Shown piece by piece: positions 5,712 to 8,290 of a stretch of 64,000 nucleotides of DNA. The stretch is from Clostridia bacterium (GTDB lineage: Bacteria > Bacillota > Clostridia > RUG12999). Numbering within the stretch: the first letter of the stretch is position 1; each line of letters begins with the position of its first letter. The translations under genes were made by a program, and so were the position numbers. The notes under the pieces were generated by a model. That model worked only from the letters and a program-made list of their open reading frames with translations. It did not search any database and was not told where the DNA came from. The stretch lies in assembly GCA_045648785.1 (NCBI GenBank), contig JAZROP010000018.1:4311-68310 (forward strand). The letters are read 5' to 3'.

Positions 5712-5713
5712 TG

Positions 5714-5755
5714 TAGCAAAGGCAACCATTTGGTTGCCTTTGCTATTGCTTTTTT
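5714..5755. terminator. Intrinsic terminator between convergent genes
   Basis: TAGCAAAGGCAACCA-TT-TGGTTGCCTTTGCTA followed by a T-run. Confidence 0.8.
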
Positions 5756-6524
5756 AAATCGTTTTTTTCTTTCTTACAAAAACATAAATTAGAATTCCTG
5801 ATAGGACAACAAAAATTATAGCAATTGCAATCATTCCCTTATTTTCCCTGTCATTCATCGTGGCGCCTCCGCCGTATTTCAATGTTTCGTCATTTTTGCT
5901 TCGCCGTTTAAGAAACTCTTCAACCAAATTATCTTCATTTGTTTTTATATTGCAAGTTCTCCCAACAACATCATACGTATCAGCTCTGTCTAAATCGACA
6001 AACACTTCTTCTGTCCCATCCGTTACAACAAAACCATTTATAATTGTGGTGTCTGTTACATATTTTGCACTATCAAAATCTATCTCTTTTTTCTCTCTAA
6101 TAAAACTATCGGAAAGTGGTCCTGCAGTAACGCAAAAAACTCTATACCCCTCCTGGCTTTTTATAACTTCAACAACTGCAATTTCTCTGCCCGAAACAAT
6201 TATTGGAAAATAATACTTATTATCTTTTACCAAATACGAAGAAACCTTTTCTTCTCCTTTTTTATATGCTTTTTCCAATTCTACAAAGTCTACTGCGTAT
6301 CCCTCAACACCTTCACCGAACTCTATTGTATTTAGATCATCCTCCGGGGTTATATTAAAATTTTCAGGATCCCCACGAAGCGGAATTAGAATGGTTTCAT
6401 AATTATCTATAGTTCCGCTTGCCAACAACTCCTCTATATCAGCAATTTCATTTGAAACCTCGGCCGTTACAGTCATACCAAACAAAAGGATAGTCACACA
6501 AATTAGTGTAAATAATTTCTTCAT
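5754..6524 (-). CDS. Exported protein with signal peptide and C-terminal membrane anchor; resembles a staphopain-type prodomain
   Basis: MKKLFTLICVTILLFGMTVTA signal peptide; DNKYYFPIIVSGREIAVVEV; C-terminal YGGG..hydrophobic helix..RKKK; RBS GAGGAG. Confidence 0.75.
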   Translation of the reverse strand: MKKLFTLICVTILLFGMTVTAEVSNEIADIEELLASGTIDNYETILIPLRGDPENFNITPEDDLNTIEFGEGVEGYAVDFVELEKAYKKGEEKVSSYLVKDNKYYFPIIVSGREIAVVEVIKSQEGYRVFCVTAGPLSDSFIREKKEIDFDSAKYVTDTTIINGFVVTDGTEEVFVDLDRADTYDVVGRTCNIKTNEDNLVEEFLKRRSKNDETLKYGGGATMNDRENKGMIAIAIIFVVLSGILIYVFVRKKKTI

Positions 6525-6549
6525 TTTCTCATCTCCTCATATCAAGCAA

Positions 6550-7116
6550 TCAAGATTTCTTCTTATTATTGTACCAGGTTGCATTCCAATAAAAAGTGGA
6601 ATTATTACAATAATCACTAAAATTATAATAGGAACGCTGCGTTCCACTCATTTTTGGATCTAAAACATATACCCCTTGATATATATCATTATTCTCTTCA
6701 TATCCATATATAATTTGGGCGTGTCCTCCACCACTATTTGACCATCTAATACCTACCGCTATTGGACTATACCAACCTGACAGCATATTTTTTATTGTAC
6801 TAAATTGAATAGCTGTTGGTGTATAAGTGGTTGAAACCATATACCATCCAAGTACGCTTGTCACTTCAGAGTCCGTTGCTCCTTCATTTACCGCAGACCC
6901 CTTTAATGTAGTAACTATATCGCTTTGACTGGGCAATGGTTCCCACGAATTAAGATAATCAATAACCATTAAAACCACTGCTGCCCAACACCAATTTGTT
7001 TTTTCTTGCCTTCTATCTGTCATATTAAGCTTGTGTGTGGTTGCACCCACGTTAATAGCACTTCCCATAATAATTATTACAATCATTATAAATGATAAAA
7101 ATTTATATTTCTTCAA
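6550..7116 (-). CDS. Secreted papain-fold cysteine peptidase (C39-like/C47/C70-like)
   Basis: Likely TTG start at 7116 after GAGGAG; signal peptide; RQEKTNWCWAA (Gln oxyanion hole, Cys), GGHAQIIYGY (His), VLDP (Asp). Confidence 0.85.
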   Translation of the reverse strand: MKKYKFLSFIMIVIIIMGSAINVGATTHKLNMTDRRQEKTNWCWAAVVLMVIDYLNSWEPLPSQSDIVTTLKGSAVNEGATDSEVTSVLGWYMVSTTYTPTAIQFSTIKNMLSGWYSPIAVGIRWSNSGGGHAQIIYGYEENNDIYQGVYVLDPKMSGTQRSYYNFSDYCNNSTFYWNATWYNNKKKS

Positions 7117-7183
7117 TAGTATCACTCCTCATAATATTTTTTAATAAAACCACTTCGCAAATACTATATTATCATTTCCTTAC

Positions 7184-7239
7184 AAAAAAGAAAAACGTGT
7201 AAATCAATCCTCATACCTTAGAGGGCTGACCTACACGTT
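7184..7239 (-). terminator. Long intrinsic terminator / possible attenuator hairpin
   Basis: On the minus strand AACGUGUAGGUCAGCCCUC-8 nt loop-GAGGAUUGAUUUACACGUU then UUUCUUUUUU; three G-U pairs work only on this strand. Confidence 0.75.
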
Positions 7240-7261
7240 ACATTGCCATTTTCTTCACTTT

Positions 7262-7336
7262 TTACATATCTGCAAAGGAGAACGACCGAAGCTGTAATTT
7301 AAGTGTATCAATCCTCTTTAAAAAACACTTGCCCAT
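7262..7336 (-). CDS. Unannotated 24-aa small ORF / candidate leader peptide MGKCFLKRIDTLKLQLRSFSFADM
   Basis: Purine-rich RBS AAGGGGGAG 6 nt upstream of the ATG; sits between a consensus promoter and a terminator. Confidence 0.55.
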   Translation of the reverse strand: MGKCFLKRIDTLKLQLRSFSFADM

Positions 7337-7366
7337 CGGTATCTCCCCCTTTTTTATTACATCACC

Positions 7367-7395
7367 ATTGTATCATATATATTTTTTAATGTCAA
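7367..7395 (-). promoter_or_regulatory. Near-consensus sigmaA promoter
   Basis: TTGACA, 17 nt, TACAAT with TG extension. Confidence 0.7.
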
Positions 7396-7432
7396 TACCC
7401 ATATAAAGTGTTTTGCAAGTTCGCACACTATT

Positions 7433-8203
7433 TTATATATATTTTTTCATATGACTCAGTGCCGATTTTTCCAACCGGCTCACCTGCGCCTGTGAAATTC
7501 CAATTTCCTGAGCAACCTCCATCTGGGTTCTGCCTTTGAAAAATCTGAGACTTAAAATATGTCTCTCGCGTTCTGAAAGTTTATCTATGGCGTTATGCAG
7601 AGCAATGTTTTCAATCCAGTTTTCGTCGGTGCTTTTGCCGTCCTTGACCTGGTCCATTATATAAACAGCGTCGCCGCCGTCATGATATATCGGCTCATAC
7701 AGGGAAACGGGGTCCTGAATGGCATCAAGTGCAAATGTTACCTCTTCCCTTGTTATATCAAGCTGTTTTGCTATTTCATCAAGTGTAGGTTCCTGTCCGG
7801 TTAAATTTGTCAATCTTTCTTTTGTCTGCAACACTTTATATGCGGTATCTCTTATAGAACGACTAACTCTTATAGGGTTGTTATCCCTTAAATATCTTCT
7901 GATTTCCCCTATAATCATGGGTACGGCATATGTTGAAAACTGGACATTCTGAGAGGTGTCAAAATTATCAATTGCTTTAATAAGTCCCACGCAGCCCACC
8001 TGAAACAAATCGTCAGCATTTTCGCCACCTCGTCCTGAAAATCGTTTCATAACACTTAAAACCAGTCTTAGATTTCCATAGACAAACTCCTCCCTTGCCG
8101 CCTCATCACCTTGCTTTATTCTCTCAAAAAGTTCTTTCTTCTTTTCTCTTGATAAAACCGGCAGCTTTGATGTGTTAACACCACAAATTTCCACCTTATT
8201 CAT
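7433..8203 (-). CDS. sigG: Forespore sigma factor SigG
   Basis: MNKVEICGVNTSKLPVL; DDLFQVGCVGLIKAIDNFD; YAVPMIIGEIRRYLRDNNPIRVSRS; GISQAQVSRLEK. Confidence 0.96.
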   Translation of the reverse strand: MNKVEICGVNTSKLPVLSREKKKELFERIKQGDEAAREEFVYGNLRLVLSVMKRFSGRGGENADDLFQVGCVGLIKAIDNFDTSQNVQFSTYAVPMIIGEIRRYLRDNNPIRVSRSIRDTAYKVLQTKERLTNLTGQEPTLDEIAKQLDITREEVTFALDAIQDPVSLYEPIYHDGGDAVYIMDQVKDGKSTDENWIENIALHNAIDKLSERERHILSLRFFKGRTQMEVAQEIGISQAQVSRLEKSALSHMKKYI

Positions 8204-8290
8204 ATGTGCACCTCCGGAAATAATCATCTTACGATTCTATTATTGCCGGAGCGGGAAATATTTAACCTACCGATTCAAAGTTTATTTTCG

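Follow-up and report, generated by a model that had tools for sequence, protein, structure and literature searches.

A predicted leader-peptide attenuator upstream of a horizontally inserted peptidase cassette in a Clostridia bacterium

What governs the transcription of a two-gene peptidase cassette whose first gene lies just behind an intrinsic terminator, which in turn follows a short open reading frame (ORF) with its own promoter? This question is raised by a locus in the genome of a Clostridia bacterium (RUG12999). The window, i.e. the whole stretch of DNA analysed, comprises 64,000 nucleotides (assembly GCA_045648785.1, contig JAZROP010000018.1:4,311-68,310), and positions refer to it unless another locus is named. 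In our judgement, the segment from 7395 to 7184 on the minus strand is probably a ribosome-dependent transcription attenuator which gates read-through into the horizontally inserted cassette. Folding in silico and comparison with relatives bear out the parts of this leader, three mutually exclusive alternative pairings between them, a conserved end of the ORF frame and the insertion of the cassette.

The initial annotation had placed a promoter, a Shine–Dalgarno sequence (SD), a 24-codon ORF, a terminator with a U tract and a protease gene on the minus strand, and all of them are found there. The sigma-A type promoter (7367..7395) combines TTGACA at 7395-7390 with TACAAT at 7372-7367 across a 17-nt spacer containing TG; in the promoter scan it matches the consensus at 11 of 12 positions, with the TG present. 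The SD GGGGGAG (7343..7349) is located 6 nt 5′ of the ATG at 7336 and doubles as the 5′ strand of a fold that sequesters it, hereafter the 5′ domain. According to the ORF list and its translation, the leader ORF (7262..7336) reads MGKCFLKRIDTLKLQLRSFSFADM and comprises 24 codons followed by TAA. The terminator hairpin (7195..7238) is composed of a 5′ arm, S3 (7238-7221), a loop (7220-7213) and a 3′ arm, S4 (7212-7195). It had been described as a 19-bp stem; folding yields 18 pairs with one internal mismatch and an energy of -24.1 kcal/mol. The U tract UUUUUCUUUUUU (7184..7195) can be read directly from the sequence. A 16-codon ORF begins at an ATG within the terminator loop (7213).

The link between the ORF and the terminator is a 10-mer, GAGGATTGAT, which the initial annotation had noticed in the leader (7316-7307) and in the terminator 3′ arm (7212-7203). 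There is no third copy in the 64-kb window; 0.10 would be expected by chance, and none of 100 shuffles contained two or more copies. The first copy lies within S1 (AAAGAGGAUUGAUACAC, 7303..7319, codons 6-12), which duplex energy and pair counts define as the 5′ strand of an antiterminator, and the second is carried by S4. The word is repeated because both copies complement the same arm, S3, the strand common to terminator and antiterminator. Around S1, the minimum-energy fold contains a local hairpin (7301..7330) between AAGUGU (7330-7325) and ACACUU (7306-7301). In addition, a late-ORF strand (CUUCGGUCGUUCUCCUUU, 7274..7291, codons 16-21) provides the 3′ strand of the 5′ domain and pairs with the region of the SD and the AUG in the window as well as in family folds. 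The 179-nt leader as a whole is more stable than its shuffles (z = -3.18), of which 1 in 200 was equally stable.

Is this leader an isolated curiosity or a member of a family? When the leader was searched by blastn in 400 genomes from its class, three genomes of other families had full-length matches with 69-73% identity, and a fourth had one partial match. It was not found in the five same-genus genomes searched, which are 80-98% complete. A pattern joining the SD and ATG to the leader repeat had 48 matches in a species-genome collection. Half of them (24 of 48) were recognised as relatives both by eye and with the profile; the remainder come from unrelated phyla and have no profile match. 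Further copies were obtained by searching five carrier genomes, two of which (G411 and G412) hold four copies each. A metagenome scan with a late-ORF pattern retrieved four loci, two of them distinct and all of one subtype, and added little diversity. In total, the family comprises 29 distinct sequences from 21 assemblies and metagenome contigs. Two alignments are used below: A1 with 24 distinct sequences, and A2 with 29, i.e. A1 and five additional rows. An nhmmer profile of 23 relatives, from which the window was left out, matches the window leader with E=1.9e-25 over model positions 12-186 of 188.

The window's own genome (G000) contains another, degenerate copy on contig C14, which this profile detects with E=0.005. 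This copy (L107; about 215-20, minus strand) is located at the contig edge, so that its downstream gene runs off the contig. It has a promoter and a terminator of the family type and an antiterminator with compensatory changes, and only ATG-TAA stands in the place of the leader ORF. Two of the four G412 copies also deserve mention. L103 (G412:C52) has ATA for the leader ATG, and L106 (G412:C38) is frameshifted relative to its nearest relative while still open for 27 codons in our own reading.

Blastn of a typical 541-nt block against plasmid and phage collections gave no match, and none of five pattern matches in viral contigs belongs to the family by profile. In Rfam 15, the window leader and four typical members reached the gathering score of no family; the best hits are at chance level (TMV_UPD-PK3, 15.4 bits against a gathering score of 34).

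Typical members share a promoter with TTGCAA, 17 nt including TGT, and TATAAT, followed by the SD, the ORF, the terminator and a conserved post-terminator box, AAGTGTCATGTGG. Their leader ORF reads MVSNFSKRFDSVxLQL(W/L)LCSSDxIE(M/I), and a conserved block of about 300 nt precedes the promoter. The window copy is, on this sequence comparison, a trimmed and divergent family member since both the upstream block and the post-terminator box are missing. A possible remnant of the upstream block is seen at 7430-7421. In locus L065 (1180-1480) and equivalently in 15 other loci, this block opens abruptly with a direct repeat of AAGTGTC, a word which is also present inside the post-terminator box and could be an operator or a recombination site.

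Which structures does the family conserve? RNAalifold on the 24 sequences predicts the terminator together with a helix of the SD/AUG region with late-ORF bases. The pair counts were judged against a sliding control, in which the same helix is shifted along the alignment, and shuffles served as a second control for S1:S3. In A2, the S1:S3 helix is paired in 94.2% of cells, as opposed to at most 59.7% when slid; 5 of its 16 pairs are changed on both sides, which none of 500 shuffles matched. The terminator in the same alignment has 92.9% of cells paired (52.8% in the best slid position), with compensatory changes at 8 of 19 pairs and in 24 cells. In A1, the whole antiterminator reaches 88.4% (at most 51.5% slid), with 9 of 42 pairs changed on both sides, and the 5′ domain 89.1% (at most 53.1% slid). 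In the family antiterminator, the outer helix is formed by S1 (leader codons 5-11) and S3, which here comprises the terminator 5′ arm together with the loop. The initial annotation had proposed that the leader copy of the 10-mer pairs with the terminator 5′ arm as an antiterminator, and this pairing is indeed conserved in relatives with compensatory changes, as the covariation check on the family alignment showed. Even members that were not selected by the pattern keep S1:S3 by double changes: C14 has UAAGG:CCUUA where AGAGG:CCUCU is typical, and L106 and L103 retain the helix too.

The third pairing is the 5′ domain, in which late-ORF bases (codons about 12-21) sequester the SD and the AUG in family and window folds. 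An anti-antiterminator formed by AAGUGU and ACACUU had been suggested earlier. This helix does pair in the minimum-energy fold, and it has a family counterpart in alignment columns 42-50 with 73-79; however, the main blocker is the larger 5′ domain, of which the small helix is the inner part.

The competing folds are well matched in energy, with medians of -22.4 kcal/mol for the S1:S3 duplex and -22.9 kcal/mol for the terminator hairpin. When RNAs are cut before the terminator 3′ arm, 23 of 24 members form the antiterminator as a long hairpin, the window being the exception. At full length, 18 of 24 adopt the 5′ domain and the terminator, and 6 retain the antiterminator. When the transcript is folded at increasing lengths, the 5′ domain has the lowest energy between about 94 and about 154 nt emerged; the antiterminator takes this place only over a short range of lengths before S4 emerges.

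Could these helices reflect a palindrome in the DNA, for instance an inverted repeat of an insertion sequence (IS)? This candidate was set aside: on the sense strand G:U pairs exceed A.C pairs 3- to 10-fold (109 vs 32, 76 vs 15 and 149 vs 15 in the three folds), in a test which is biased because the structures were derived from sense-strand RNA folding. The family profile also matches its own reverse strand over model positions 45-162, which we take as the signature of the long antiterminator palindrome.

Next comes the question of what the ORF contributes. Homologous ORFs of 24-27 codons are present in all 24 sequences of A1 (26 codons in 20, 27 in two and 24 in two), and the stop lies 20-25 nt 5′ of the stem in 22 of the 24. 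In L013/L060, L062 and L068, frameshifts have made the peptides unrelated, yet the ORF ends at nearly the same position, as does that of L106 in our own reading. No row of A1 departs from the SD and ATG, which the search pattern fixed there, and the ATG is kept in three of the five rows added in A2. Entropy sums at codon positions 1, 2 and 3 amount to 5.21, 11.63 and 7.62 in 17 in-frame typical members; this count omits seven rows, namely the window, L041, L050 and four frameshifted rows. The second position is thus the most variable, the opposite of what purifying selection at the amino-acid level would produce. Sensing of Lys or Cys at codons 3-4, as proposed in the initial annotation, does not hold in the family: typical members have Ser-Asn there, and the peptide is free of amino-acid-level constraint.

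No run of codons for one amino acid was found in the in-frame family members. Leu is kept at codons 14, 16 and 18 in these members and occurs at codon 17 in 8 of 17 (window 7297-7283; A1 columns about 76-90), and these codons might be a weak leucine control region. Frameshifted members lack even the Leu codons, and the bases of these codons sit in helices of both global folds. In the window, moreover, the Leu positions fall outside the permissive ribosome range obtained from the masking folds described below. Sensing of leucine at codons 14-18 is therefore retained only as a low-odds idea.

These data bear on two further explanations. Under the first, the ORF would encode a functional peptide for signalling or regulation and the hairpin would merely be its terminator. 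An ORF with a strong SD in 27 of 29 sequences and the persistent leucines at codons 14, 16 and 18 are compatible with this. However, at least three frameshifted lineages encode unrelated peptides of equal length, variability peaks at codon position 2 and the RNA helices account for the conserved nucleotides, so that we consider it extremely improbable. The second regards the locus as an independent small unit, a small RNA or small-protein gene whose own terminator also ends sigG transcripts, with peptidase transcription starting independently. The promoter, the ORF and the strong terminator add up to a complete unit of about 175 nt, the window antiterminator is weak, and two papers on Sinorhizobium trpL (PMC6614838, PMC7298713) offer a precedent for trans-acting attenuator RNAs and leader peptides. 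We give it a small chance: a plain terminator has no need of an antiterminator conserved through compensatory changes, the amino-acid sequence is not conserved, with codon position 2 the least constrained, and the leader always precedes a co-oriented cargo gene at a similar spacing. The promoter scan was also inspected for an own promoter of the peptidase. The sole promoter-like site 3′ of the hairpin matches at only 9 of 12 positions and overlaps the peptidase SD, which its -10 box abuts, and the candidate was set aside.

How, then, could an ORF without a constrained peptide act on the terminator? The proposed attenuator would be transcribed from a strong, constitutive-type promoter. In its OFF fold, codons about 12-21 would pair with the SD and AUG, the local hairpin would hold S1 (codons 5-12), S3 would pair with S4 and RNA polymerase would stop at the U tract. 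In the ON fold, S1 would pair with S3 and block the terminator. If no ribosome is loaded, the 5′ domain is predicted to form about 60 nt before S3 emerges and to trap S1, so that termination would be the default. A translating ribosome would melt the 5′ domain. Once S3 emerges, the position of that ribosome would decide: at the start, with its peptidyl (P) site on codons 1-2, or close to the last codons or the stop codon, it would leave S1 free and permit read-through, and on codons 3 to about 14 it would cover S1 and allow termination. The output would thus depend on ribosome loading and progress along the 24-26-codon ORF, the peptide itself being irrelevant.

Masking calculations, in which a 28-nt footprint was blocked in the folds and stepped by P-site codon, agree with this scheme: in silico, the minimum-energy fold shifts with ribosome position. 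The nascent RNA of the window forms S1:S3 only when the P site is on codons 1-2 or 20-24, including a ribosome at the stop codon. Typical members lose S1:S3 when the P site is on about codons 3-14. Arrest on the first codons, which had been expected from the outset to free the antiterminator, is thus permitted in the window folds for codons 1-2, and a second permissive site at codons 20-24 has to be added. Furthermore, the S1 core starts at +16 from the ATG, just where the footprint of an initiating ribosome ends on its 3′ side. Of the two permissive positions, it is the one at the end of the ORF to which the conserved length and stop of the family ORFs point. We infer that the ORF is translated and that the switch has the polarity described; as to the physiological signal, we guess that elongation or termination slows down when amino acids are short or translation is under stress.

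Several observations weigh against this interpretation. In the window itself, the S1:S3 duplex reaches only -15.7 kcal/mol as compared to -24.1 for the terminator, i.e. the antiterminator is weak, and it is absent from the ribosome-free nascent fold of this copy. A simple terminator scan of the window did not list the hairpin, probably because the internal mismatch leaves a top helix of only 4 bp, which is below the scan rule. At the family level, the sequences of A1 and A2 are closely related (mean column identity 75-77%), and in most members the search pattern had pre-set the SD/ATG as well as the AAAGAGG core of S1. The structures tested by pair counts came from one member, L065, so that the percentages of paired cells and the excess of G:U come out too high. 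For the 5′ domain, compensatory changes give little support (4 of 28 pairs and 5 cells in A1). The default-OFF polarity is a kinetic argument, inferred from the minimum-energy length series. It has to rest on kinetics because, at equilibrium, the nascent antiterminator of typical members forms even without a ribosome. Lastly, two of the 29 sequences keep the RNA folds without a usable ORF (C14 and L103), which means either that translation may be dispensable or that these copies are decaying.

This last observation favours a rival in which the terminator and antiterminator are a real switch that is set in trans, by an RNA-binding protein, a small RNA or a metabolite reading the S1/S4 word or the 5′ domain. 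The ORF would then be secondary, or serve only RNA stability. C14 and L103 retain all helices, regulatory codons do not form a run, the four copies in each of G411 and G412 would suit a regulon with a common regulator, and extra conserved boxes lie outside the leader in family loci. We regard such a factor as unlikely, albeit worth serious consideration. The SD and ATG are invariant in A1, although fixed there by the pattern, and the ATG persists in three of the five rows added in A2, while the position of the ORF end survives independent frameshifts. S1 starts precisely at the 3′ edge of the initiating-ribosome footprint and the 5′ domain uses the SD itself. In addition, no conserved candidate regulator gene adjoins the window copy, and the Rfam search gave no match to a riboswitch or a protein-binding leader. 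The ribosome-dependent attenuator is the reading which we retain.

What does the leader control, and how did it come to its present site? Its upstream neighbour is a gene for a sigG-type sporulation sigma factor (7433..8227, minus strand; Pfam Sigma70 r2, r3 and r4), not an IS or a transposase, and the sigG protein is 91-97% identical to those of the same-genus loci. The first cargo gene (6550..7116, minus strand) encodes a papain-like cysteine peptidase (Peptidase_C70/C39_2) with a signal-peptide-like N terminus, supported by Pfam matches to PF12385 (45.3 bits, cut-off 19) and PF13529 (25.8 bits, cut-off 24). The gene most likely starts with TTG 7116, which follows GGAG by 8 nt and the U tract by 67 nt; the mechanical ORF list gives a GTG at 7125. 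The second cargo gene (5754..6524, minus strand) codes for a 256-aa protein of no known family, without a hit in Pfam or NCBIfam, in which by eye the N terminus resembles a signal peptide and the C terminus a membrane anchor. Its role might be that of an inhibitor, an immunity protein, a substrate or an anchor. The terminator scan found a bidirectional terminator (5713..5746, both strands) that ends the cassette and the convergent dnaE.

The region between sigG and dnaE differs among relatives. In G003 (locus L003), nothing but the sigG terminator separates sigG from dnaE, and there is no cassette. In G004 (L005), the site holds a different insert of about 780 bp, with an XRE-type HTH gene and one further ORF, flanked by a duplicated sigG terminator. 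In the window (5713-7432), it is occupied by the leader-peptidase cassette of about 1.65 kb. This comparison indicates that the leader and its cargo are an insertion in a sigG-dnaE hotspot. The sigG terminator, CCCGAACGA..TCGTTCGGGTTTTG, stands 3′ of sigG in L003 and L005 and is missing in the window. Since relatives keep this separate terminator here, the leader hairpin probably ends sigG transcripts as well.

The unit of leader, peptidase and partner recurs in three genomes (window, L085 and G412:C52), in the latter two in other chromosomal contexts. Peptidase orthologues stand behind family leaders in L085 and L103, and an orthologue of the second cargo protein follows the peptidase in L085 and G412:C52. 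Thus L103, with its ATA for ATG, also precedes the orthologue of the C70-like peptidase and the partner. Aligned with the window, the DNA of G412:C52 is about 70% identical in the leader and the peptidase gene; a short stretch of the partner gene reaches 84%. Elsewhere in the family, cargo genes are diverse but co-oriented, with mostly signal-peptide-like N termini (by eye) and similar spacing to the leader. Amidase_6 exceeds its cut-off in two loci, M10-like, C39_2 and C92 hits stay under theirs, and 15 of the 23 family cargo proteins scanned have no Pfam hit. L002 (G034), which lacks the post-terminator box, has an M10-like HExxH metalloprotease ORF as its cargo, and the only start codon in frame with this ORF, a TTG, lies not behind the terminator but inside its loop (L002:1500-1535). 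This arrangement may be a deletion scar or an unusual start.

In seven loci (L011, L013, L051, L057, L060, L065 and L086), a 381-aa ORF ends exactly where the conserved upstream block begins. It matches the IS1595-family transposase model NF033547 of NCBIfam with E=1.8e-17, under the curated cut-off, and its Pfam match is weak. These loci raise the question whether the leader is a relic of a 'mobile attenuator', the terminator-bearing end of an IS or transposon placed upstream of unrelated genes with no regulated switching. Besides the adjacent transposase gene, nucleotide-level conservation across several families of Clostridia and the absence of the window cassette from the same-genus G003 are in keeping with it, and PMC2965389 sets out the concept. 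Nevertheless, we find it very improbable. No transposase was found near the window copy or the G412:C52 copy, and a promoter, an SD, an ORF and a covarying antiterminator belong to the element itself. The genes behind it do not form a random set, being co-oriented and mostly endowed with signal-peptide-like N termini, and the leader-peptidase-partner unit recurs with about 70% DNA identity.

A bolder proposal, which we put forward tentatively and hold to be unlikely as a whole, is that the ribosome-dependent leader heads a portable expression platform. This block of about 550 nt would comprise the AAGTGTC-repeat region, the strong promoter, the translation-sensing attenuator and the post-terminator box. 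It would be joined to varied pairs of a secreted hydrolase or effector and a partner, couple their release to ribosome status, for example through stalling at the Leu-rich codons 14-18 or at the stop when amino acids run short, and move between families, sometimes with the IS1595-like transposase. If true, a leader-peptide attenuator would here serve nutrient scavenging or antagonism instead of biosynthesis or drug resistance.

How does such an attenuator relate to known systems? Attenuators with leader ORFs are textbook knowledge for amino-acid operons of Proteobacteria, with trpL, leuL, hisL and pheL as classical examples, and in Firmicutes they mostly precede antibiotic-resistance genes. 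Like the amino-acid attenuators, the present leader combines an SD-led ORF, a terminator, an antiterminator with one strand in common and a third pairing that keeps this antiterminator from forming; in both, the position of the leading ribosome would choose the fold. In contrast to them, it has no codon run for a single amino acid apart from Leu 14/16/18, and its cargo is a secreted peptidase cassette instead of a biosynthetic or charging operon. Furthermore, its blocking structure sequesters its own SD and AUG, and its antiterminator strand lies early in the ORF, with ribosomes arrested at the start and at the end both permissive in the model. Published work reports few leader-peptide attenuators outside Proteobacteria and Actinobacteria and a his leader upstream of hisS/hisZ in bacilli (both PMC2965389), as well as a leucine-rich ilv attenuator peptide of S. 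aureus (PMC5794164).

The second class consists of antibiotic-responsive leader ORFs, with which the element shares its low-GC Gram-positive setting and the proposed release of an antiterminator by stalling on a short ORF. An early-arrest model would be of this type and is permitted by the window masking folds. Such leaders include those of lmo0919, bmrB-bmrCD, tet(M) orf12 and ermK. Others from Firmicutes are described for vmlR (PMC9226507), msrD (10.1101/2021.11.29.470318) and hflXr (PMC6310831). Unlike in these systems, the downstream genes are not resistance factors (Pfam and NCBIfam, both cargo proteins), the ORF is longer and its end, 20-25 nt 5′ of the stem, is conserved, and there is no conserved drug-specific arrest motif. 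The 'mobile attenuators' of PMC2965389 are similar in that a conserved terminator-bearing sequence precedes different genes, here adjoined by an IS1595-like transposase in seven loci. The family element differs from them by its promoter, ORF and covarying antiterminator, it moves with its cargo, and the window copy has no adjoining IS.

In the literature searched, largely at the abstract level, there is no description of such a leader before secreted enzymes, and the term 'extracellular protease' is absent from the part examined. The family is apparently undescribed and travels with secreted-enzyme cassettes in uncultured gut Clostridia. Judged by its modelled folds, it is an element that works like a leader-peptide attenuator, yet without the defining traits of either the amino-acid or the antibiotic-resistance subclass. 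The logic of attenuation would here be placed on a horizontally moving cassette of secreted peptidases and amidases, along with many proteins that belong to no known family. An alignment and a structure are now at hand for a new cis-regulatory RNA family, and they provide a handle on the unannotated cargo genes. If the signal is translation or amino-acid status, ribosome sensing would be tied directly to the export of degradative enzymes.

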